Shown here: positions 18,115 through 59,450 of the stretch, one piece after another
How the letters are laid out: the number at the start of each line of letters is the position of its first letter
How positions within the stretch are numbered: the stretch's first letter is position 1
Source: Thermotogota bacterium
GTDB lineage: Bacteria; Thermotogota; Thermotogae; Petrotogales; Petrotogaceae
DNA: 64,000 nt
Assembly: GCA_029780115.1 (NCBI GenBank)
Contig: JAKOZG010000004.1
Location: 248,607-312,606 of the forward strand
Direction of reading: 5' to 3'
The notes under the pieces: model-generated
Told to the model about the DNA's origin: nothing
What the model saw: only the letters and a program-made list of their open reading frames with translations
Database searches by the model: none
Program-made: the position numbers and the translations under genes

Positions 18115-18440
18115 GTTAATAAAATATCAAAAATCATGGTGAGAATTAGTTGAATAAGATGTCTGATAACTTTAAAATGGCAAGATAACGATCTGTTTTT
18201 AGAAGGCAGAGTACTAAATGAATAAAAATTTTTTTGGGATGTCAAAATAGAAAGGGTTAGGGAGCGAAGTTATTCTCTTTAGATATGGGTATTAAAGATG
18301 TCAAACGAATCTTTAGTTGATATAGAAGATTAAAAGGTAGTAGGTATTTTTTAAAAGACTAAATCTGAATCGTTCACAAACATATACTTTTGAATTTCTA
18401 AGACGCCATTAAACGAATAGTTTGTAAGGAGGAATAAAAA

Positions 18441-30482: not shown

Positions 30483-31025
30483 GATTACCTCCTATATTTT
30501 ATTGATTTGGTCACTTTAGAAATTTTAAAACATGCATTTATAAATTCAAAATCTTATTTTTCAAAAATCTTCATATCTAAAGTGCCTATTTATTAATTTT
30601 CTTCTCAAACATTATTATAACATTTATTTAATTTATTATAGAATTTATATTCTAATTAGATATTCGATCACTTCAAAGTTGAATCTAATCTAAATTATAT
30701 TTGAATCTCTGGATTTTAATCGAGGTGATGGAGGTGTGTCCTACCCCCCTAAACAACTATTAAAACTTAAGAATTTGTCTTCATTTTATCAGAACACAAA
30801 TTGGGGGATTGTACCTTTCTGCCATGTTTCCAAATTCGAAATCCTCACTTTAAGAAACAATTTTTTCTAAAAGATATAAACAATTAACACTGATTGAAAA
30901 TATTAATGTTAAAAATTTCTAGAAACAATACTAATTTTGTGTTATAATTACTTAATAATTGTTAATAATATCGGGAATTGTTATATGTAAAAAAAAAAAG
31001 AGTTTAATTTTTATCAATTTATATC

Positions 31026-47625: not shown

Positions 47626-47856
47626 ATGTTGATTTTAAACATCAATCAAGTATTATTGGCGCTGATAGAGACTAAACTTTAGAAGAGGAAAGACATTCTA
47701 AACATAGGATTTTGAATTTATGAAGTTTACATGAGCGGAGCCCTCCTCTTCACCTTCTGCATAAATACCAAAAAAAGCTAAAATTTGAAGCATAAATAGA
47801 ATTAAAGTTTCAGAATTTTTAAAGTGGATATTAATTTCATATTAGGAGGAAAATTT

Positions 47857-49674
47857 ATGATACCAGTTCCTAAAAAGATCACTTTACTTGAAAGAATTTT
47901 TAAAATGCCTGATAGTGGAAAAATTCTAGCTTCAACAGATACTTTTAAGTTGGCAGGATTAGTAAAAGACATTTTTTTTGAAAAGAAGCTGGAGATAACA
48001 ACCTATAATGATGGCACAGCAAAGATTCAACTTTTTGTTGATGAAAATGTAATAAATAACCCACAAGGTTACAAAATGAGGATTACTGAATCTAAAATCA
48101 CTATTGTAGGTGGATCACATCAAGGATTATTTTATGGAATTCAAACGTTAAAACAACTATTTAGAGAGCATAGATACCAAATTCCTTCGATGATAATCGA
48201 AGATGAGCCTGATTTTTACAATCGTGGATTTATGTTAGATATAAGTCGAGATAGAGTGCCTACTATGGATACTCTTAAAAGTTTAATTGATGTTTTGGCT
48301 GAACTAAAATATAATCAATTTCAACTATATACAGAACATACCTTTGCTTATACTAATCACGAAATTGTATGGAAAGACTATTCTCCTTTGACTTCTCAGG
48401 ATATTCTTGAACTTGATAATTATTGTAAAGAAAGATACATAGAATTAGTTCCAAATCAAAATTCTTTTGGACATATGGAAAAATGGTTAATTCATGATGA
48501 ATATAAACATTTAGCTGAAGCACCAAATGGTTTTATCAAACCTTGGGGAGAAAAGTCGGGTCCTTTTTCGATATCGCCGGCAGTTCCTGAGTCCATAGAA
48601 TTTGTAAATAGTTTATTTGAGGAGCTACTGCCTAATTTTACAAGTACAAAAGTAAACATAGGTGCAGATGAGACATTTGATTTAGGCTTAGGTCGATCTA
48701 AAGAACTTTGTGAAAAGTTTGGAAAAGGAAGAATATATTTAAACTTCTTGTTTGATATATATAAAATAATTAAAAAACATAATAAAACAATGATGTTTTG
48801 GGGAGATATAATAAAAAATTATCCAGAACTTGTAAAAGATCTTCCTGACGATGTTATTTCTTTAATCTGGGGATATGAAGCTAATCATCCATTTGAAGAA
48901 GAATGCTTGTTATTTGCAGAAAAAGGATTCACATTTTATGTTTGCCCTGGTACCTCTTCTTGGAATTCCTTTATTGGAAGAAGTGATAATGCTATCGAAA
49001 ATATAGAGAATGCCATTATAAATGGGAAAAATCTTGGAGCAAGTGGGATTCTTCTTACTGATTGGGGCGATAATGGTCATCCTCAACATTTGCCTTTTTC
49101 GGTTATTGGTCTAGGGTATGCTTCAACGCTTGGATGGAATCTTTCAAATAAACCTTTGGTTAAAGAGTTTTTGAAAGATTTAAATGTGCATATTTTTCAG
49201 GTTAAAGATGATATAGCACAAATATTATACACTTTAGGAAATCTTTACAAAAACGCTGGAGTTCAGATTCACAATTCAAGTCCATATTTTCTAGCGCTCT
49301 TATTTCCGGAAAGGGTTATAGGTTCCAAAGAGATGTTAGATGTGAATGTTGAAGGAGTCAATAAATCAATAATCATAGCTAAAGAAACAATGCAAGAATT
49401 ATCGAAAATGAGAGATAATACTGACAAAAAAATGTTAATAGATCAAATAATAAATAATGTTGAAATGGCTATCCTAGGAATGAAAATGCTGTTACTTATT
49501 AAAGAACACACGAATATTCTAAAAATTCCAGAAAATGAGTGGAAGATATTTAAAGAAGAATTAGATCATGTAATCAATGAATACCAAAAATTGTGGTTAT
49601 CTGTAAATAGACCTGGGGGATTAGAAGATAGCACAAAAAAACTTACTAAAATTTTACAACTAAGATATAAATAA
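47857..49674 (+). CDS. GH20 beta-N-acetylhexosaminidase-like glycoside hydrolase (cytoplasmic). Start at the ATG at 47857 after AGGAGG.
   Basis: GH20 catalytic-domain hallmark RGFMLDISRDRV. TIM-barrel region HIGADE-like NIGADETFDLG. Confidence 0.75.
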   Translation: MIPVPKKITLLERIFKMPDSGKILASTDTFKLAGLVKDIFFEKKLEITTYNDGTAKIQLFVDENVINNPQGYKMRITESKITIVGGSHQGLFYGIQTLKQLFREHRYQIPSMIIEDEPDFYNRGFMLDISRDRVPTMDTLKSLIDVLAELKYNQFQLYTEHTFAYTNHEIVWKDYSPLTSQDILELDNYCKERYIELVPNQNSFGHMEKWLIHDEYKHLAEAPNGFIKPWGEKSGPFSISPAVPESIEFVNSLFEELLPNFTSTKVNIGADETFDLGLGRSKELCEKFGKGRIYLNFLFDIYKIIKKHNKTMMFWGDIIKNYPELVKDLPDDVISLIWGYEANHPFEEECLLFAEKGFTFYVCPGTSSWNSFIGRSDNAIENIENAIINGKNLGASGILLTDWGDNGHPQHLPFSVIGLGYASTLGWNLSNKPLVKEFLKDLNVHIFQVKDDIAQILYTLGNLYKNAGVQIHNSSPYFLALLFPERVIGSKEMLDVNVEGVNKSIIIAKETMQELSKMRDNTDKKMLIDQIINNVEMAILGMKMLLLIKEHTNILKIPENEWKIFKEELDHVINEYQKLWLSVNRPGGLEDSTKKLTKILQLRYK

Positions 49675-49712: not shown

Positions 49713-51449
49713 TTAAAGCCACTCTCTTTCTAAATAATGAGTATGTAATAATTGTTGTGCCTTTTCGCTTCCTGGTTTTTCTAGGTATTCGTTGTAAAGT
49801 CTTAATATATAAGGATTTTCGTGGGACTTTCTTATTATTTTAGTTCTATCTATAACATTTAATGCATCTATTCTTTTTTTGATTACTTCAAAATTACCAT
49901 GGTGATAAGGTTGACCTCCTCCTCCTACACAACCGCCAGGACAGGCCATAATTTCGATTAAATGAAGATCTATTTTTTTGTCTCTAATAGCTTCCAGCAA
50001 TTTTCGAGCGTTTCCTAAACCATATGCTACCCCAATTTTAATAATTTGACCGTTAATGTCTACTTCTGCAACTCTTAAAGATTCATAACCGTGTAAAGCT
50101 TGGAACTCAACCGTTCTTAATTCTCTTCCAGTTAACCACTCATATGTGGTTCTTAAAGCTGCTTCTGCAACTCCACCTGTTCTTCCAAAGATTGCAGCTG
50201 CCCCAGTCGATTCTCCAAGAGGGTTGTCGTAAGACCTTTCTGGAACAGTTGTAAAATTAATTCCTGCCTCTTTTATCATTTTTGCTAGTTCTCTAGTTGT
50301 TAATACGTAATCAACATCTTTATAATCTGGGCTGGAGTTTATTTCTTTTCGAGAAGCTTCGTATTTTTTGGCTAAGCATGGCATAATAGATACTACTGTA
50401 ATATTTTTAGGTTCCAGATTAGCCTTTTGGGCATAATAACTTTTTACTATAGCACCAAACATCTGTTGAGGAGATTTTGCAGAAGAAGGCATTTCTATTA
50501 AATCCGGGAATTGGTGTTCCAAAAACTTTATCCATCCTGGACAACATGAAGTCAGCATAGGTAGAAAACCGTCGTTTTCAAGTCTTTCTTTAAATTCTGT
50601 AGCTTCTTCAATTATAGTAAGATCTGCACCAAAGTTAGTATCGAAAACCTTGTCGAATCCTAGTAATTTTAATGCACCAACTAATTTTCCAGTAGAAATA
50701 GTTCCTGGCTCAAATCCAAACTCTTCTGCCAAGGCTACTCTGACAGCAGGTGCTGTCTGAACAACAACATGCTTTTTTTCGTTTACCAAATCTTTCCATA
50801 CGTAGTCAATATATGAATCCTCTTCTAATGCACCTGTTGGACATACTGCAACACACTGACCACAGAAAGTACAAGCCGTTTCTTCTAAAGGCAAATCAAA
50901 AGTAGGTTTAATAACAGCGTTGAATCCCCTCTCTACAGCTGATAAAACTCCTACTGTTTGAAAATCATTGCACATTGTTTCACATCTTCTACACATTATA
51001 CATTTATTAGGATCTCTTATAATTGCTGTGGAAATATCTTGTTTGTAGTTTGTTGTTTTTCCCATGAAAGGGTTTTTCACTATATTAAGTTCAGAAGCAA
51101 TTCTTTGAAGGTCGCACTCACCATTTTTTGGGCATTGCAAACAATCTTGTGGATGGTCTGATAGAAGTAATTGAATAGCAGTTCTTCTAGCTTCAACTGC
51201 TTGTCTTGAAAGTGTGTTTATTCTTAATCCTTCCGAAACTGGTGTAGTACAAGCTGGAGCTAATGATTTTCTACCTTCTATTTCAACCATACAAACTCTA
51301 CACGATGAAGGTTTATTTTCTATGTTAATATCCTTTAAATTTAAATAGCACAAAGTCGGTATGTAACCACCGAATTTTTGAACTGCAGTCAAAACAGTAT
51401 CATTTTCAGAAGCTTCAAACTCATCTCCATTTATATAAATTTTGGGCAT
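49713..51449 (-). CDS. hydA: [FeFe]-hydrogenase catalytic subunit (H-cluster plus N-terminal 2Fe-2S and 4Fe-4S ferredoxin domains).
   Basis: H-cluster motifs L1 TSCCPGW, L2 IMPCLAKKYE and L3 EIMACPGGCVGGGGQP. Cys-rich N-terminus. Confidence 0.9.
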   Translation of the reverse strand: MPKIYINGDEFEASENDTVLTAVQKFGGYIPTLCYLNLKDINIENKPSSCRVCMVEIEGRKSLAPACTTPVSEGLRINTLSRQAVEARRTAIQLLLSDHPQDCLQCPKNGECDLQRIASELNIVKNPFMGKTTNYKQDISTAIIRDPNKCIMCRRCETMCNDFQTVGVLSAVERGFNAVIKPTFDLPLEETACTFCGQCVAVCPTGALEEDSYIDYVWKDLVNEKKHVVVQTAPAVRVALAEEFGFEPGTISTGKLVGALKLLGFDKVFDTNFGADLTIIEEATEFKERLENDGFLPMLTSCCPGWIKFLEHQFPDLIEMPSSAKSPQQMFGAIVKSYYAQKANLEPKNITVVSIMPCLAKKYEASRKEINSSPDYKDVDYVLTTRELAKMIKEAGINFTTVPERSYDNPLGESTGAAAIFGRTGGVAEAALRTTYEWLTGRELRTVEFQALHGYESLRVAEVDINGQIIKIGVAYGLGNARKLLEAIRDKKIDLHLIEIMACPGGCVGGGGQPYHHGNFEVIKKRIDALNVIDRTKIIRKSHENPYILRLYNEYLEKPGSEKAQQLLHTHYLEREWL

Positions 51450-51467: not shown

Positions 51468-52925
51468 TTAAACAATTTTAATTGCATTAAATCTACAAGT
51501 AGAATAACAAGAACCACACTTAATACATTTTGTTTGGTCTATAAAATGAGGTTTCCTCAATTCGCCACTTATAGCTTGTGTAGGGCAAACTCTTGCACAA
51601 GCAGTGCATCCTTGACAGTTTTGTGGAATAACTTCATATCTGATTAAATTCTTACAAATACCTGCAGGACATACCCTGTCTAAGATATGAGCTTTGTACT
51701 CATCTTCAAAATACTTAAAAGTAGAAAGAACAGGGTTAGGTGCTGTTTGTCCCAATCCACATAACGAAGAATTTTTTATAACATTGGAGAGAGAAATCAT
51801 TCTTTCCAAGTCCTCTAAATGGGCGTTTCCAGAAGTAATTTTTTCTAATATTTCTAACAGCCTGACATTACCAATTCTACAAGTTGTGCATTTTCCACAA
51901 GATTCATCAACTGTGAATTGAAGATAAAATTTTGCCACATCTACCATACATGTATCTTCGTCCATGACAATCATTCCGCCAGATCCCATCATTGATCCTA
52001 AATTTTGAAGACTATCATAATCTATTGGTGTATCGAGATATTCAATAGGAATACAACCGCCGGAAGGTCCCCCAGTCTGGACAGCCTTAAATTTTTTGTC
52101 TCCCTTAATTCCACCACCAATATCAAAAATAATTTCCCTTAAGGTTGTTCCCATGGGAACTTCTACTAAACCAACATTTTTTACGTCTCCAGCTAAAGCG
52201 AAAACTTTTGTGCCAGGGGAATTTTTAGTACCATATTGTCTGAACCAATCTGGGCCATTAAGTATTATAGGGGCAATATTAGCGAAAGTCTCAACATTAT
52301 TTATTAAAGTAGGTTTTCCCCATAAACCACTTGTAGAAGGAAATGGTGGCTTATTTCTAGGTTCGCCTCGTGATCCTTCAATCGAATGAATTAAAGCTGT
52401 TTCTTCTCCACATACAAAGGCACCAGCACCCAACCTAATTTCTATGTCAAAAGAAAAACTGGTTCCTAGAATATTTTCTCCAAGCAATCCAAATTCTTTT
52501 GCCTGACAAATAGCATTTTTTAATCTTTCAACTGCTAGAGGATATTCTGCTCTGATATAAATAATACCTTTTTTTGCTCCTACGGCATAACCTCCAATAG
52601 TCATTCCTTCAAGAACGGAATGAGGATCTCCCTCCAAAATAGATCTGTCCATAAAAGCACCAGGGTCTCCTTCGTCGGCGTTGCATATAACATATTTTTC
52701 ATCGCCTTTTGCTTGCATAGTAAATTTCCATTTTAAACCAGTTGGAAAACCCCCTCCACCTCTGCCTCGTAAGTTAGAAGAAGAAATAATATCAATCACT
52801 TCTTCCCTCGTCGACTCAAGAGCTTTTGCTAGCGCTAAATAACCATCGTTTTTTAAATAATCTTCTATATTTTCCGGATTAATATTTCCAGCGTTTCGTA
52901 ATACAATACGTATTTGTTCACACAT
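51468..52925 (-). CDS. hydB: Hydrogenase NAD(P)H-binding flavoprotein subunit (NuoF-like, with C-terminal 2x[4Fe-4S] ferredoxin domain).
   Basis: NuoF-like FMN/NADH motifs [15 protein letters not shown] and [13 protein letters not shown]-terminal CxxCxxCxxxCP. SD GGAGGT 8 nt before the ATG. Confidence 0.9.
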
Positions 52926-53049
52926 TATTTTACCTCCACTTATATAACTAATTCTATTTTTGATATTATGAAATGCTAGTAGCTAATTTATTATTTAGAT
53001 AAATTCTAAATTTTTAACGCAATTTGCTTTCTTTCTTCTTTTTAAAAGG

Positions 53050-53100
53050 GAAAGTAAGAGGGCTGCCGCCCTTGAACCCGCTTAAATTTAAAACTCAGCT
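53050..53100 (-). repeat. Copy A of a conserved intergenic element. Minus-strand core TTTAAATTTAAGCGGGTTCAAGGGCGGCAGCCCTC.
   Basis: Near-identical core to copies at 56700-56790, 59105-59165 and 59195-59262. Same orientation relative to the flanking minus-strand genes. Confidence 0.8.
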
Positions 53101-53112
53101 TCTAAAGATTGA

Positions 53113-53490
53113 CTACAAAACTATCTTATGAGTTTCATGGACAATAAGTTCTTTCACTATTTTTCCTTCCATTAAATGATTATAAACAATATCATGAACC
53201 TTAGATTTTGTTACAAAACCATATAATATAGGTTCTTTTCCTGGTTCATTAACTTCAACGGTAGGTTCGGCATAACAATATCCCAAGCATCCTGTTTTTA
53301 TTACTTCTACGTTTTCTAGTTTAGTTTCATTAATAACTTTTAATAACTCATTAAAAGTTTCCTCTGCCCCAGAAGAGATTCCACAAGTTCCTAAGGCTAC
53401 CTTCAAATAAGTAGTTTTATTTTCACTATCATTTTTTTTAAGAGTAGCTACCAAATTTCTTAATTCATCGATACTATTTAACTTAGACAC
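53113..53490 (-). CDS. Thioredoxin-like ferredoxin-fold small protein. Possibly a detached N-terminal domain of HydB, since HydB homologues in related taxa are about 140 aa longer.
   Basis: 125 aa with NuoE-like CGIS...GCLGYCYAEP pattern, but only 3 Cys. Lies between hydC and hydB on the same strand. Confidence 0.55.
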   Translation of the reverse strand: MSKLNSIDELRNLVATLKKNDSENKTTYLKVALGTCGISSGAEETFNELLKVINETKLENVEVIKTGCLGYCYAEPTVEVNEPGKEPILYGFVTKSKVHDIVYNHLMEGKIVKELIVHETHKIVL

Positions 53491-53630
53491 AAAAGTTCCC
53501 TCCTATTTTATAAAGGTTTTAGATTAACATTTTTGAAAAAAGGTTCTTCATTGGGTAAGATTTCGCTGTGTTACATTTTAATTTCAAGGTATTATTATTC
53601 ATAAAATCTATCTTCTTCTAAGGTTTTTAT

Positions 53631-54137
53631 CTATTGATTTTCTTTACTTGTATATTCTCTAATAATTTTTCTAACATCTGAAACTTTTAGTCTCCCGTAA
53701 GTATCTTCACCAATTTTTACAACTGGAGCTAGACCACACGCACCCAAACATCTAACTGGATGAATTGAGAATAAACCATCTTCTGTAACTTCCTCTGGTT
53801 CAATATTTAAAAATTTTTTAAATTCATCATAAATTAAGTTTGCCCCCGCAACATAACAAGCGGTCCCCAGACAAATATTAATAGGATATTTTCCACGAGG
53901 TTTTGTAGAGAAAAAATTATAAAATGTAACTACTCCATATACTCTAGAGACGTGTATTTTTAGTTTCTGTGCAATGAGCTTCTGAACTTCTGTTGGAATA
54001 TAACCTATATTTTCTTGTGCTTTATGAAGAATTTGAATGAGCAAGCTTTTTCTTTGTTCATCGGTATAACCCTCTACATCTATTGATTCAAGATATTCTC
54101 GGAATGTTTCTAATTTGTGTTCATAAACTTTTTCCAT
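53631..54137 (-). CDS. hydC: Hydrogenase NuoE-like [2Fe-2S] subunit.
   Basis: NuoE motifs ICLGTACYVAG and VRCLGACGLAPVV. Length 168 aa. Confidence 0.85.
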   Translation of the reverse strand: MEKVYEHKLETFREYLESIDVEGYTDEQRKSLLIQILHKAQENIGYIPTEVQKLIAQKLKIHVSRVYGVVTFYNFFSTKPRGKYPINICLGTACYVAGANLIYDEFKKFLNIEPEEVTEDGLFSIHPVRCLGACGLAPVVKIGEDTYGRLKVSDVRKIIREYTSKENQ

Positions 54138-54348: not shown

Positions 54349-55494
54349 TTAATAATTGATCCAAACACAACCTTTGTTTGTACTTTCCACACATTTTTCT
54401 ATAAAACGCATGCCTTGAACACCATCTTCTACAGTTGGAAAATCCAAATCTGCAGAAGTTAAAATCTCACCTTGTTTTTTCTTATGAATTGCATTAACAA
54501 ATTTATCATAGATTCTAGCAAAAGCTTCTACATATCCTTCTTGATGGCCACCTGGGGCAACATATTCTGTTTTTATAGAATCATTTATCTGATCGCTTCC
54601 TCGAGATATAATTTTAAATGGTTCATCGATTGTCGATAATTTTAGATAATTTGCATGTTCTTGAGACCATTCTATAGAACCTTTGGTACCGTATATACCA
54701 AAATTTAAGTTGTTTTCATGTCCAACGGCAATTTGTGATGTCCAATAGATACCTTTGGAATTATTATCATAATTTACAAGAATGGAGGCATTATCGTCAA
54801 GTCTATCTTCTTCTATGAATTTATCCATTCTAGCACATAAAGAATTTATCTTTAGACCGCTAACAAAAGATATCAAATTTTCAACATGAACTCCGATGTC
54901 TGCAACACAATTTGACAATCCAGAAATATTAGGATCTGATCTCCATTCATGACGTGGGATTTTACCCTTATAAGGAACTTTTGCCATCCATTCACTTATA
55001 TACTGTGCATTTACAAATCGCACCTCACCAATTTTTCCGCTTTTTACTAGTTCTCTTGCATATCTAACCATTGAATAACCAGTATATGCATAAGAAACTG
55101 CGAAAAGTAAATCTTTTTCTTGTGCTAATTTTTGTAATTCTAATGCCTGATCCAACGTAACTGTTAAAGGTTTTTCGCACATGACATTTATTCCATTTTC
55201 CAGAAAACTTTTAGCAATCTCATAATGAGAATTGTTAGGAGTCACTATAACAACGAAATCTATTTTATCAGGTCTTTTTCCTTCTTCTTCTGCCATTTCA
55301 GCGTAATTTTTATATAATCTTTTTTCATCAAGCTTTAATTCTTTACCTGTAGCCAATGTATTTTTAATATTTCTGGAAAAAGAACCAGCTACTAATTCTG
55401 CCTTCCCATGAAGATTTAAAGCTTTTCGATGAATAGTTCCTATCTGAGATCCTCTTCCTCCACCAACCATTCCATAGATAATCTTTTTAGCCAT
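54349..55494 (-). CDS. Gfo/Idh/MocA-family NAD(P)-dependent oxidoreductase. Start at M8 of the ORF, preceded by GGAGG.
   Basis: N-terminal Rossmann YGMVGGGRGSQIG. EKPL motif CEKPLT. Paralog of the upstream gene. Confidence 0.8.
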   Translation of the reverse strand: MAKKIIYGMVGGGRGSQIGTIHRKALNLHGKAELVAGSFSRNIKNTLATGKELKLDEKRLYKNYAEMAEEEGKRPDKIDFVVIVTPNNSHYEIAKSFLENGINVMCEKPLTVTLDQALELQKLAQEKDLLFAVSYAYTGYSMVRYARELVKSGKIGEVRFVNAQYISEWMAKVPYKGKIPRHEWRSDPNISGLSNCVADIGVHVENLISFVSGLKINSLCARMDKFIEEDRLDDNASILVNYDNNSKGIYWTSQIAVGHENNLNFGIYGTKGSIEWSQEHANYLKLSTIDEPFKIISRGSDQINDSIKTEYVAPGGHQEGYVEAFARIYDKFVNAIHKKKQGEILTSADLDFPTVEDGVQGMRFIEKCVESTNKGCVWINY

Positions 55495-55511
55495 GTTATG
55501 GCCTCCTTCAA

Positions 55512-56606
55512 TCAAAATTTAACCCAAGAACTTCCTTTTTTAGTACTTTCTATACATTTTTCTATAAATTTCATGCCTCTTACACCAGCGATAACACTTT
55601 GAAAGTTCGAGTTATTGTTATTAATTTTCTTACCATTCTTTTTATTTATTAGATCTGTTATAAAAAGAGAATAAGTGTTTTTGAAGCCTGCATTTGTACC
55701 TTCTAAAATTTCTTCTTCTTTTTTTATTAGTTTTAGTGAATCTTCAAAGAAAATTTTTATAGTGTTTGCTTCTTGAAGATCCCATTTTAAAGTTCCTTTG
55801 GAACCATAAAGTGAAAAGTTAAAATTGTTTTTTTCTCCTATGGCTATCTGAGACATAAAATAAATTCCTCTTGAACCATCTTTAAAATTTACCATAACTA
55901 TCGAATTATCTTCCAGCTTTCTTGATTTTACAAATGCATCTAATATTGCGCACAACGATTCGATTTCCTTTTCTGTTAAGTAAGAAATCATATTTTCCAC
56001 ATGACTTCCAATGTCAGCAGTTGTGTTAGCCAAACCACTTTGAGAAGGATCTAAACGCCACTGAGCTTGTTTATTTTCATTTTCCACAGGTTCGGCCAGC
56101 CATCCTTGAAGATACTGAGCATTTATCATTCTGATAGTTCCTATTTCGCCAGATTGAATCATTTTTTTTGCTTCTTGAATAATAGGAAAACCAGTATAAG
56201 AGTAAGTTACGCAGAATAGTAAATCCTGTTTATTTGCTAAATCTTTAAGTTCTTCGGCTTCTTTTAGAGAAGTAGTTAAAGGTTTTTCACAAACAACGTT
56301 TATTCCATTTTCTAGAAAAGCTTTAGCTATTTTGTAATGAGAGACATTTGGCGTTGCAATAACCACAAAATCTATCTTTGGCTTCTTCTTACTTTCTACT
56401 CTAATCATTTCTTGATAATCTTTGTACAGCCTTTCTCTTCTTATTTTCCACTCTTTGCCTGTCTGAAGTGTTTTCTTAAAATCTCTTGAAAAGCAACCAC
56501 TAACAATTTTTGCCCTTCCATCTAGTAGGATAGCGTTTCTGTGAGATTCTCCAATCATAGAATCTATAGCTCCGCCTACCATTCCGTAGGTTAATTGAGT
56601 ATCCAT
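55512..56606 (-). CDS. Gfo/Idh/MocA-family NAD(P)-dependent oxidoreductase. Start at M13 of the ORF, preceded by AGGAGG.
   Basis: YGMVGGAIDSMIG. CEKPLT. About 45% identical to the downstream paralog. Confidence 0.8.
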   Translation of the reverse strand: MDTQLTYGMVGGAIDSMIGESHRNAILLDGRAKIVSGCFSRDFKKTLQTGKEWKIRRERLYKDYQEMIRVESKKKPKIDFVVIATPNVSHYKIAKAFLENGINVVCEKPLTTSLKEAEELKDLANKQDLLFCVTYSYTGFPIIQEAKKMIQSGEIGTIRMINAQYLQGWLAEPVENENKQAQWRLDPSQSGLANTTADIGSHVENMISYLTEKEIESLCAILDAFVKSRKLEDNSIVMVNFKDGSRGIYFMSQIAIGEKNNFNFSLYGSKGTLKWDLQEANTIKIFFEDSLKLIKKEEEILEGTNAGFKNTYSLFITDLINKKNGKKINNNNSNFQSVIAGVRGMKFIEKCIESTKKGSSWVKF

Positions 56607-56699
56607 TGGTTTTTTCCTCCTAAGAATTGATGTTTTATACACTTTGGAAATTCAAAAATCTTTATTTTTAAAGGGTAATAATTGATGAGTTCTTTAACA

Positions 56700-56790
56700 A
56701 ATTCGGTACTTGTACCGAGAGAAGATAAAGGGCTGCCGCCCTTATACCCGTATAAATCTAAAACCTTATTTTTGAAAATCTTTGTTTCTA
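56700..56790 (-). repeat. Copy B of the conserved intergenic element: extended prefix AAAGATTTTCAAAAATAAGGTTTTAG, core, and suffix CGGTACAAGTACCGAATTTG.
   Basis: Shares the GGGCGGCAGCCC hairpin core with copies A, C and D. Shares the prefix with C and the GGTAC...GTACCGAAT suffix with D. Confidence 0.8.
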
Positions 56791-56856
56791 AAGTGTGTAT
56801 TTAGGTTAGTTTAATTATATAATATTTTATAGTGAAGGAAAAATATTTCTACTCCA

Positions 56857-57774
56857 TTAATTTATTTTATTGATTTCATAAGGTGTTTCTTGATATACAT
56901 AATAGTTTAACCAATTGCTAAACAATAAATAAGCGTGGCTTCTCCATTTTACTATTGGTTCCCCATTGGGATCATCATTAGGAAAATAATTTTTTGGAAG
57001 GGGTATATCTAGCCCTTTATTTAAATCTCTTTCATACTCTTTTTTCAAAATTACTGGATCGTATTCCGGATGGCCGGTTACAAATACTTGTCTTCCATCT
57101 ACTTTTTCTATTAAGTATACTCCAGCGTCTACTGATTCAGAAATAATATTTAATTCAGTAATTGGTTCTATATCTTCTCTTTTTATTTCTGTATGTCTTG
57201 AATGAGGTGCCCAAAATATGTCATCAAAACCCCTTACCAATTTACAACTTATATCGTTTACTGAATGCTCAAAAACGCCAAATATTTTTTTATTAACAGG
57301 ATATTTATTTATACCATAGTATAAATATAATCCTGCTTGGGCTCCCCAACAAAGGTGTAAAGTTGAAAAAACATTATTTTTAGACCATTTCATAACTTCT
57401 TTTAATTCTTCCCAATAATCTACTTCTTCAAAATCTAAAGTTTCAACAGGAGCGCCTGTAATAATCAATCCATCAATTTTTTTGTATTTAATTTCAGAAA
57501 ACGTTGTATAAAAAGTCCTAAGGTATTCTTCTGAAGTATTTTTTGATTTGTGAGAGATCATTCTTAATAAAGAAACATTTACTTGTAAAGGTGTGTTTCC
57601 TATAAGTCTAAGGATTTGAGTTTCTGTGACAATTTTTGTGGGCATTAAGTTTAAGATTATAATTTCTAAAGGCCTAATGTCCTGATGTATAGCTCTTTCC
57701 TGAGACATTACGAAAACATTTTCTTTTTTTAATATTTCCCCAGCGGGTAGATTCGCTGGAATGTTTATGGGCAT
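56857..57774 (-). CDS. metA: Homoserine O-acyltransferase (MetA family).
   Basis: [31 protein letters not shown]-terminal hallmark. Length 305 aa. Overlaps metY by 10 nt. Confidence 0.85.
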
Positions 57775-59081
57775 TTACTTCCATGCTCCCTTTGAGAGGT
57801 AGTAGCTTTGGTTAATGATAGGTTTATATCTTCTATTAAATCCTCTATATCTTCTAAACCCACAGATAGTCGAATCATATCCTCTGTAACGCCAGAAGCC
57901 AGCTGTTCCTCTTTAGTCAGTTGTTGGTGAGTAGTAGAAGCTGGATGAATAGCCAAAGATCTGGCATCTCCTACATTGGCAACGTGCTGAAAAAGTTCTA
58001 AATTTTCTATAAATTTTCTTCCTGCTTCTAACCCCCCCTTCAACCCGAAAGTTAAGATTCCTCCAAATCCGTTTTTCAAAAAATTCTTTGAATTATTATA
58101 AGTCTTATGATCCTCTAGTCCTGGATAATTAACCCAGTTAACCCTTGGATCATTTTGTAAATAATGAGCTATTTGTAAAGCGTTAAAACAATGCTTTTGC
58201 ATCCTTAGACTTAAGGTCTCTAAGCCTTGTAATATCAAAAAGGAATTAAAAGGGCTGATTGTGCACCCTATATCTCTTAAAAATTGAGATCTAGCTTTTT
58301 GTATATAAGCGGCATTTCCAAATTTTTCGAAAAAGTTTACACCATGATATGATGGGTCTGGTTCACTTAACTCAGGAAATTTTCCATTGTTCCAATTAAA
58401 GTTACCACTGTCTACAATGATTCCACCAATACAAGTACCATGCCCGTTCATGTACTTGGTTAAAGAATGAATTACTATATCGGCGCCAAATTCAAAAGGT
58501 TTGCATAAATAAGGTGTTGCAAACGTATTATCGACAATTAACGGAATTCCATTTGTATGTGCTATTTTAGATATTTCTTCAAAATTTGGTACAGACAATT
58601 CTGGGTTGCCTATGGTTTCAACATACACTAACTTTGTTTTATTAGATATTTTTTCTTGTAAATCTTGAAGATCTGTAACATGAAAAGAATGTGTTGTTAT
58701 GCCCAGTCTTCCTAATGTATTTTTAAATAGAGTGAAGGTACCTCCATATAGAGAGCTGCTGCACAAAATTTCATCTCCTGCTTTTGTAATATTTAAAACA
58801 GCGATAGTTTCAGCAGCTTGACCAGAGGCGGTAGCCAAAGCTCCTACTCCTCCCTCCAACGCGGCAACACGCTTTTCCAAAACTTCTGTAGTTGGATTTT
58901 CCATTCTTGTATAAATATTTCCACTCTCTTCTAAAGAAAAAAGTCTAACCGCATGATTGGTATCTTTAAATTTGTAAGAGGATGTTTGATAGATCGGAAC
59001 AACATTTGAACCGGTTGTAAGATCTGAATTGTATCCGGCATGAATCATTAAAGTATCGAATTTGTAATTCTTTTTTGTCAT
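57765..59081 (-). CDS. metY: O-acetylhomoserine aminocarboxypropyltransferase (sulfhydrylase), PLP-dependent.
   Basis: PLP-lysine context [12 protein letters not shown]. Cys/Met gamma-synthase family. SD AGGAGGT 7 nt upstream. Confidence 0.85.
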
Positions 59082-59104
59082 ATTTGTACCTCCTTAAAAT
59101 TTGG

Positions 59105-59165
59105 TGAGGGCTACCGCCCTTTAACCCATTTAAATTAAAAACCTTATTTTAAAAATCTTTATTTC
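59105..59165 (-). repeat. Copy C of the conserved intergenic element. It lies immediately upstream of the metY SD.
   Basis: Minus strand: AAAGATTTTTAAAATAAGGTTTTTAATTTAAATGGGTTAAAGGGCGGTAGCCCTCACC. Confidence 0.8.
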
Positions 59166-59194
59166 AAAATAGCATTAATTAGTTCTTTTTTACA

Positions 59195-59262
59195 GATTCG
59201 GTACCCGTAACAAGAAGAGTGAAGAGCTACCGCCCTTTAACCCGTTTAAATTTACAAATCAT
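59195..59262 (-). repeat. Copy D of the conserved intergenic element. The core is slightly degenerate and it carries the GGTACCGAAT suffix.
   Basis: Minus strand: TTTAAACGGGTTAAAGGGCGGTAGCTCTTCACTCTTCTTGTTACGGGTACCGAATCTG. Confidence 0.75.
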
Positions 59263-59335: not shown

Positions 59336-59450
59336 CTCCTTATCTCTCAGAATTATTTCTGCAGGATTTGGCACCTTCGCATAATTTGATTTATGCAGGT
59401 TGCCGTGGCTTCATAGGGCCAGTCCCTCCACCACTCTTGATAAGGCGAAA
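59336..59450 (-). ncRNA. SAM-I (S-box) riboswitch aptamer in the metY-metA leader.
   Basis: Minus strand reads CTTATCAAGAGTGGTGGAGGGACTGGCCCTATGAAGCCACGGCAACC...GAAGGTGCCAAATCCTGCAGA...CTGAGAGATAAG. This is a near-textbook match to the S-box consensus, including the P1 helix CTTATC/GATAAG. It is a GC-rich island in AT-rich DNA. Confidence 0.9.

Follow-up and report, generated by a model that had tools for sequence, protein, structure and literature searches.

Gene content of the hydrogenase cluster

The stretch of DNA analysed here (the window) comprises 64,000 nucleotides of a Thermotogota bacterium (GenBank assembly GCA_029780115.1, contig JAKOZG010000004.1, positions 248,607 to 312,606) and contains a [FeFe]-hydrogenase gene cluster. 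In this cluster a small gene, hndB, lies between the genes for the NuoE-like and NuoF-like subunits and is parted from the latter by a spacer with a fragment of a miniature inverted-repeat transposable element (MITE). Four adjacent, co-oriented genes coding for a NuoE-like protein, the small HndB, a NuoF-like protein and a HydA-like protein occupy 49.7–54.1 kb of the minus strand:

53631..54137, minus strand: hndA/hydC, NuoE-like thioredoxin-like [2Fe-2S] subunit of 168 amino acids (aa); Pfam PF01257 at 164.9 bits, and NCBIfam NuoE/HoxE family matches
53113..53490, minus strand: hndB, stand-alone thioredoxin-like-fold subunit of 125 aa with a GTG start and the Shine-Dalgarno (SD) sequence GGAGGG
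52926..53112, minus strand: hndB–hndC spacer of 187 bp, terminating in the hndC SD sequence GGAGG
51468..52925, minus strand: hndC/hydB, NuoF-like flavin mononucleotide (FMN)/NAD(H) subunit of 485 aa; ATG start with the SD sequence GGAGG 8 nt upstream
49713..51449, minus strand: hndD/hydA, [FeFe]-hydrogenase catalytic (H-cluster) subunit of 578 aa

The order, sizes and coordinates of these genes, the repeat within the 187 bp and the strong SD sequence of the hydB core are as an earlier note on this DNA had described them. An identical gene order was found in Defluviitoga tunisiensis, on a Petrotoga-like contig and in Peptococcaceae. The 125-aa protein is identical to one from a metagenome-assembled genome (MAG) labelled 'Defluviitoga sp.' and shares 77% identity with its D. 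tunisiensis counterpart. The catalytic subunit contains the Pfam domains Fe_hyd_lg_C (339 bits), Fe_hyd_SSU, Fer2_4, NADH-G_4Fe-4S_3 and Fer4, and falls into NCBIfam NF040763 ('NADH-dependent [FeFe] hydrogenase, group A6') with 851 bits against a cut-off of 765. In the 485-aa NuoF-like subunit Pfam detected Complex1_51K, SLBB, NADH_4Fe-4S and two Fer4 domains (residues 430–485), the subunit carrying a C-terminal 2x[4Fe-4S] ferredoxin domain. Nothing was detected by Pfam N-terminal of residue 47, where Complex1_51K starts, and the thioredoxin-like N-terminal domain (N-domain) is absent. The core had been estimated to be about 140 aa short, and indeed Thermotoga maritima HydB (626 aa) matches it via residues 150–626 only. 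The predicted activity is that of an NADH- and ferredoxin-dependent, electron-bifurcating or electron-confurcating [FeFe]-hydrogenase; as a heterotetramer of the Hnd type it would couple the oxidation of H2 to that of NAD+ and ferredoxin being reduced, by flavin-based bifurcation.

The enzyme had been regarded as trimeric; once the small gene is counted, the cluster provides four subunits and is of the Hnd type. By its architecture it appears to belong to the Hnd-type tetrameric bifurcating [FeFe]-hydrogenases and not to the T. maritima HydABC type. It resembles HndABCD of Solidesulfovibrio (Desulfovibrio) fructosivorans in its succession of a NuoE-like subunit, a small HndB, a NuoF-like subunit without N-domain and a catalytic subunit, the likeness being judged on names, sizes and architecture. 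The subunits of the window measure 168/125/485/578 aa, and those of Solidesulfovibrio HndABCD about 171/123/490/585 aa. The two clusters differ in that the present one is found in Thermotogota and has hndB parted from hndC by the 187-bp spacer with its MITE fragment. The characterised Hnd enzyme co-purifies as a tetramer, and its HndB is thought to be without a redox centre (PMC10084766). An additional cofactor-less subunit of ~15 kDa, HydD, is known from A. woodii (PMC6288185). We consider it very likely that the locus encodes a four-subunit Hnd-type hydrogenase of a Defluviitoga species in which HndB is an ancient separate paralogue, and that the spacer came later, through a MITE insertion.

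With the HydABC enzymes the cluster shares homologous HydA, HydB core and HydC subunits. The FMN/NAD site, the B1 cluster, the Zn hinge residues and the C-terminal ferredoxin domain are all kept in the core, and the bifurcation chemistry is presumably the same. HydB of the HydABC enzymes, however, has a fused four-Cys [2Fe-2S] N-domain (the B5 cluster), whereas here the NuoF-like subunit is without N-domain and a three-Cys paralogue is encoded upstream. Reviews assign the trimeric T. maritima HydABC type to Thermotogae (PMC7795431); Defluviitoga and Petrotoga would instead use the four-subunit Hnd-type enzyme. Little is at stake for the hydrogenase itself, whose proteins already have public database entries with generic names. 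Annotators are nevertheless warned that hndB followed by a short hndC should not be taken for a broken HydB.

HndB is homologous to the N-terminal domain of HydB and BfuB

A phmmer search against the PDB matched residues 29–122 of the small protein to residues 3–97 of fused BfuB chains, the best matches being NfnB of T. sibiricus (9n5u_B, E 4.6e-11), StnB of S. ovata (8oh5_B) and NfnB of C. saccharolyticus (9bov_B), with HydB of A. woodii and T. kivui as weaker matches. The 485-aa protein aligned over its full length to residues 100/114–594 of the same three chains, which ranked in the same order (about 730 bits against residues 114–594 of T. sibiricus NfnB). The AlphaFold2 model of the small protein (predicted local distance difference test score, 87) was superposed by Foldseek on the N-terminal thioredoxin-like domains of BfuB with a root mean square deviation of 1.3–1.6 Å; other Foldseek matches (1f37, 5abr) likewise point to a thioredoxin-like alpha/beta fold. 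The product of the small open reading frame (ORF) thus has a thioredoxin-like fold and is a homologue of the HydB/BfuB N-domain, and the two ORFs tile a fused NfnB/StnB-type protein. The proposals that the 125-aa product has the fold of the HydB N-domain and that the two ORFs align to one fused protein were both borne out.

For both ORFs the best matches in sequence and in structure are thus NfnB and StnB (BfuB; 9n5u, 9bov, 8oh5). The N-domains of these proteins have the three-Cys pattern xxCG(I/M)AAG...GC(I/V)GxC(Y/F)xEP in common with HndB, and in T. sibiricus the site binds Zn2+. NfnB and StnB differ in carrying the domain on one polypeptide with the core and in having the NADPH-oxidising NfnA/StnC, and no hydrogenase, as the large partner.

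As had been noticed, the 125-aa protein contains exactly three cysteines (C36, C68 and C72, in CGIS...GCLGYC), so that the four-Cys ligand set (CX4C ... CX3C) of thioredoxin-like [2Fe-2S] ferredoxins is not present. This bears on the possibility that the product of the small ORF is no hydrogenase subunit but a soluble [2Fe-2S] ferredoxin that acts independently as an electron carrier. A weak similarity to the thioredoxin-like ferredoxins of Clostridium and Azotobacter exists (35 bits with NCBIfam; 1f37 and 5abr in the structure search), but the score stays below the NCBIfam cut-off and, with 20.3 bits, also below the gathering cut-off of 24.8 for PF01257 (2Fe-2S_thioredx). Moreover, the first CX4C ligand is missing in every family member, hndB lies between a NuoE-like (or HATPase) gene and a NuoF-like gene at every locus examined, a strictly conserved position, and the characterised Hnd enzyme, as cited above, is purified as a tetramer. 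We therefore regard a free ferredoxin as highly improbable.

HndB forms a widespread stand-alone family

The 120 best homologues of the small protein, from Thermotogota, Clostridia, Bacteroidota and Peptococcaceae, were all 112–180 aa long, and all but five fell within 122–136 aa; where the Joint Genome Institute (JGI) gave a name, it was 'NADP-reducing hydrogenase subunit HndB'. An exhaustive HMMER search with the family profile returned 4,239 representative clusters at E<=1e-3, 1,717 of them at E<=1e-10. Among the best 150 of the 4,239 clusters, nearly all were 104–140 aa long, several measured 150–290 aa with an N-terminal HndB part, and none was a fusion of ~600 aa. About four of these 150, ~290–405 aa long (P0181, P0194, P0259 and P0269), have the HndB part at residues ~175–290 and are probably HndA–HndB (NuoE-like plus HndB) fusions, suggesting that HndB fuses to either neighbour depending on the lineage.

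Across 35 diverse members the residues T35, C36, G41, G67, C68, Y71, C72, A74, E75, P76 and E79 were invariant, and HndB of the window carries every one of them. The three-Cys motif TCG...GCxGYCYAEP was likewise invariant across the alignment, with Ala or Gly always in place of the first Cys of CX4C. The three-Cys pattern is therefore a signature of the HndB family and no defect. In pairwise all-against-all comparisons three groups were apparent, namely stand-alone HndB (79–194 bits within the group), four-Cys N-domains (68–126 bits) and the three-Cys fused N-domains of NfnB/StnB (80–117 bits). HndB scored 52–70 bits against the three-Cys fused N-domains and 30–56 bits against the four-Cys ones. 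The 125-aa gene would accordingly be an hndB orthologue, and HndB would be an ancient paralogue, with a gene of its own, of the BfuB/HydB N-terminal domain.

HndB accompanies long and short NuoF-like subunits

At three loci, one on a short contig (L007), one from Caloramator (L152) and one from Bacteroidota (L153), hndB adjoins a gene for a HydB with a four-Cys N-domain of its own, the long hydB following after 18–24 bp. The long proteins measure 597 aa in Caloramator and Bacteroidota, and a 527-aa call was made on the short contig. Their N-termini read ...ICGGTGC...TGCFGFC... (ILICGGTGC...TGCFGFC in L007). L007 is a probable Thermotogota relative, and its type of HndB was also found in a Thermotogota MAG. 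The co-occurrence of HndB with an N-domain-bearing HydB indicates that HndB is a paralogous, separately encoded extra subunit. A Peptococcaceae locus (L154), by comparison, copies the architecture of the window: the gene for a 125-aa HndB is followed after 11 bp by that for a 491-aa HndC, which starts ...QQLRIALRNCG. The identities of the window core to the NuoF-like subunits of these loci were as follows:

D. tunisiensis, short form: 96.7%
Petrotoga-like contig, short form: 86.8%
L007, long form: 73.5%
Caloramator, long form: 70%
Bacteroidota, long form: 67%
Peptococcaceae HndC, short form: 63%

Short and long cores are not sorted by similarity, which suggests that the gained or lost state of the N-domain changed more than once. 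For Petrotogaceae the simplest reading of the sequences is that the four-Cys domain was lost in a lineage that already possessed hndB. The 485-aa subunit would then be a short 'HndC' form without four-Cys N-domain and not the remainder of a recent gene split. A tblastn search of the 187-bp hndB–hndC spacer detected no remnant or pseudogenised four-Cys N-domain.

These distributions also bear on an ancient fission, in which HndB and the short HndC would correspond, as separate proteins, to the fused three-Cys (Zn-type) BfuB of Nfn/Stn, related to it by one deep fission or fusion event, with HndB acting as the N-domain in trans in the short-HndC enzymes. Because 9n5u_B, 8oh5_B and 9bov_B are, in this order, the best PDB matches of the core and of the small ORF alike, a deep fission/fusion link between HndB plus HndC and the three-Cys BfuB is real, and both the higher scores of HndB against three-Cys than against four-Cys N-domains and the close superposition of the folds agree with it. 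Removal of the four-Cys N-domain from HydB of T. kivui strongly reduces bifurcation (PMC12018979), so that a short HndC plausibly needs a substitute. However, HndB also accompanies HydB proteins that have an N-domain and so is not simply 'the' N-domain, and the window core is nearer to long-form HydBs (70–73.5%) than to the short HndC of Peptococcaceae (63%), which favours repeated N-domain loss over a single fission. In addition, domains of ~90 aa hold a weak phylogenetic signal. A single ancient fission is thus a serious possibility, if not a probable one.

Possible metal site and proposed role of HndB

The three-Cys pattern is common to HndB of the window and T. sibiricus NfnB, its best-matching solved structure. 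The N-domain site of the latter ('B5') holds 'unequivocally' Zn2+ and not [2Fe-2S], and the enzyme still bifurcates (PMC12018979). HndB probably contains no [2Fe-2S] cluster and possibly has a Zn site, for which the invariant Glu75 or Glu79, or Thr35, are candidates as the fourth ligand. By analogy with T. sibiricus NfnB, HndB might hold Zn or no metal and have a structural or regulatory role. It may dock on HndC at the site that the N-domain takes in the fused enzymes, and its role would be structural rather than electron-carrying. The debate on the N-domain cluster as part of the bifurcation site is touched in two ways: the three Cys of HndB are invariant and match the Zn-binding N-domain of T. 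sibiricus NfnB, and HndB accompanies long and short NuoF-like subunits alike.

The hndB–hndC junction

Within the spacer lies one fragment of a repeat family that recurs elsewhere in the window:

53050..53108, minus strand: repeat copy A, a MITE fragment of ~60 nt consisting of TTTAAATTTA and the GC-rich hairpin GGGTTCAAGGGC-GGCA-GCCCT; member of direct-repeat family D2 and matched by the MITE hidden Markov model (HMM)

When the spacer was searched alone, copy A matched positions 32–90 of the MITE HMM with 15.8 bits (E 3.9e-07). Its hairpin was flagged as terminator-like (5 bp, weak). No terminal inverted repeats (TIRs) were recognisable in copy A by the HMM, no target-site duplication was seen, and 'TTTAGAATTTATCTAAAT', considered as a right TIR, was unsupported by the HMM.

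In D. tunisiensis the region is syntenic and the hndB–hndC spacer measures 116 bp. This spacer had at one point been considered repeat-free, but the alignment shows it to be orthologous to that of the window (74% column identity, two deletions) and to carry the repeat segment with its hairpin mutated from GGGCGGCAGCCC to AAGCAATGGCTC, suggesting that the insertion predates both Defluviitoga species and is decaying. On the Petrotoga-like contigs (L004/L005), the hndB stop overlaps the hndC start (TAATG) and the SD sequence of hndC lies inside hndB, the expected ancestral, translationally coupled junction. Since the overlap exists there without any spacer, the repeat did not create the two-gene state but merely separated two existing genes further. 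We propose that a MITE of ~205 bp entered a formerly tight hndB–hndC junction in the Defluviitoga lineage and later decayed to a fragment of ~60 nt; hndC would now be translated from its own strong SD sequence, the coupling being gone.

The junction decides on the alternative that had been put forward under the name of a split HydB, namely that the repeat, by inserting at the domain boundary, cut a full-length HydB into two genes, one for a 125-aa N-domain and one for a 485-aa core, or that it maintains such a split. That the two ORFs tile fused BfuB proteins, that a mobile-element fragment sits exactly between them and that the MITE family inserts immediately upstream of SD sequences all fit such an event. 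The Petrotoga-like relative, however, has a separate hndB with neither spacer nor repeat, and gaps of 11–24 bp part the two genes in Peptococcaceae, Caloramator, Bacteroidota and L007. Furthermore, the HndB family stands alone across phyla, and in operons that also encode a long HydB, HndB and the four-Cys N-domain of that HydB are different paralogues. Because two genes are present even in relatives that lack the element, instead of the fused state expected in close relatives of a gene split by a mobile element, a split by the repeat is refuted and can be given hardly any credence. Of the earlier proposal, the tiling and the homology stand; the split itself does not, HndB being an independent, mostly stand-alone family that co-occurs with N-domain-bearing HydB. 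The other option offered there, that the two-gene state is ancestral, agrees with the separate hndB of the relatives. A separate small gene in relatives without the repeat, together with an independent HndB family, is essentially the pattern that the earlier note had itself set against its split-gene reading.

Several points weigh against an ancient separate HndB with a later MITE insertion as we propose it. The name HndB follows the JGI annotations and the matching architecture and sizes rather than the sequence of S. fructosivorans HndB. The direction of N-domain loss was read from percent identities and not from a reconciled tree, copy A fits the MITE model over ~60 nt only, so that the one-time insertion of a whole MITE is deduced from this fragment, and at the deepest level 'split' is not wrong, given the kinship of HndB plus HndC with the three-Cys BfuB.

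A mobile MITE family upstream of Shine-Dalgarno sequences

The window contains the repeat core AGRGCTRCCGCCCTT four times, where 0.08 occurrences would be expected by chance; that of copy A recurs at 56.7, 59.1 and 59.2 kb. Related copies were found in D. tunisiensis, on the Petrotoga-like contig and at 25 metagenome loci (L127–L151) retrieved with a 22-nt pattern. The repeat belongs to a conserved block of 188–207 nt (~205 bp) that is bounded by the TIRs (T)AGnnACTTTAGAAAT ... ATTTCTAAAGTnAGTA in the metagenome copies and in copies B, E and F of the window, and 10-bp direct target duplications flank six of eight distinct insertions (L127, L128, L132, L133, L135 and L144). The TIRs and target duplications identify the element as a MITE. 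The block contains a GC-rich hairpin, the motif TACAAGTACC and a TATAAT box near its right end. All insertions examined point at an unrelated gene from a position a few bases upstream of its SD sequence, the genes including rplS, hydC and those for a phosphate-binding protein, a Mur ligase, sugar-binding proteins and rubrerythrin. The window holds seven copies or fragments, all co-oriented with the next gene and at most 70 nt from its start. Six of the seven were found by the family HMM in a whole-window search, copy A scoring only with the spacer searched alone. The copies other than copy A are:

18325-18401, plus strand: MITE copy or fragment, found by the family HMM
30498-30589, minus strand: MITE copy or fragment, found by the family HMM
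47676..47826, plus strand: MITE copy E, in front of a GH20 hexosaminidase gene and in the same orientation (nhmmer E 4e-11)
56638..56794, minus strand: MITE copy B, internally deleted, ~157 nt, with the ends ACTTTAGAAAC ... ATTTCCAAAGTG, just upstream of the SD sequence of a GFO/MocA oxidoreductase gene (nhmmer E 1.9e-15)
59100..59262, minus strand: MITE copies D and C in tandem, between a riboswitch terminator and the SD sequence of metY (direct repeats and family HMM)

The MITE is mobile. Upstream of hydC the window has no copy, whereas D. tunisiensis has the site filled: two tandem MITEs lie there in the D. tunisiensis assemblies L001 and L002 (L001, 5050-5400) and one in L003. On the Petrotoga-like contig a MITE lies between hydC and hndB (L004, 593-792). 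Insertions of the element into the hydrogenase operon thus occurred in three related lineages, each at a different junction. No autonomous insertion sequence with matching ends was found in ~350 kb of retrieved loci.

A structured RNA family was rejected as an explanation of the repeat in favour of a MITE bounded by TIRs and target-site duplications. Rfam returned nothing for the repeat (gathering thresholds on the window, E<=10 on 52.9–59.5 kb and gathering thresholds on 20 unrelated loci), an S-adenosylmethionine (SAM) riboswitch being the sole match, and RNAalifold on eight copies yielded only a 7-pair hairpin with weak covariation. The CodY-box-like AATTTTCWGAAAAT and the palindromic TTTAGAAnTTCTAAA within the MITE are better explained as TIR or sub-terminal repeats and are not claimed as regulator sites.

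Neisseria Correia elements and the enterobacterial repeats of the ERIC/BIME type are MITEs or intergenic repeats carrying outward promoter-like sequences. The Petrotogaceae element is like them in being short, non-coding and multi-copy, with TIRs, target-site duplications, a location in transcribed intergenic regions, internal hairpins and a -10-like box; it differs in belonging to another sequence family and in its strong bias towards SD-proximal, gene-co-oriented sites, which is unusual. The family appears to be undescribed: a narrow literature search for 'miniature inverted-repeat' together with Petrotoga gave nothing relevant, earlier descriptions remaining possible.

The element looks like a mobile promoter/5'-untranslated region cassette. 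A more far-reaching combination, in which such a cassette is inserted or retained only near SD sequences and has struck the operon at three junctions, while HndB is a Zn-type BfuB N-domain supplied in trans, is tentative and as a whole rather unlikely. If it were true, translational coupling would be lost at each MITE insertion, with subunit expression possibly rewired, and the N-domain would be a detachable module of the bifurcating core. The family may also offer a way to study promoter mobility in thermophilic biogas bacteria.

Unrelated, mostly GC-rich bacteria have multi-copy intergenic repeats that contain the exact sequence of the MITE hairpin, GGGTCAAGGGC-GGA-GCCCTTGCC (L008–L126, among the matches listed); these bacteria include Acetobacteraceae, Hyphomicrobiaceae, a Victivallaceae MAG and gut Clostridia MAGs. 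There the hairpin is usually one of two to three tandem 'GGGTC + hairpin + GC' units, which are without an Rfam family. A contig scan with GGGTN{1,2}AAGGGCGGN{0,1}AGCCCT gave, among the matches listed, GC-rich hairpin repeats of unrelated phyla and none from Thermotogota.

Neighbouring features

The longest-ORF starts of the GH20 gene (GTG at 47824) and the GFO/MocA gene (GTG at 56642) lie within MITE copies; translation probably begins instead, as in D. tunisiensis, at the ATGs at 47857 and 56606, each of which follows an SD sequence. The SAM riboswitch (RF00162, 100 bits) and its terminator occupy 59337-59446 on the minus strand, upstream of metY–metA (59081..56857). Between the met genes and the hydrogenase cluster lie two tandem paralogous GFO/IDH/MocA oxidoreductase genes (54349-56642, minus strand), which form the direct repeats D4/D5 with 73–77% identity and are syntenic in D. 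tunisiensis.

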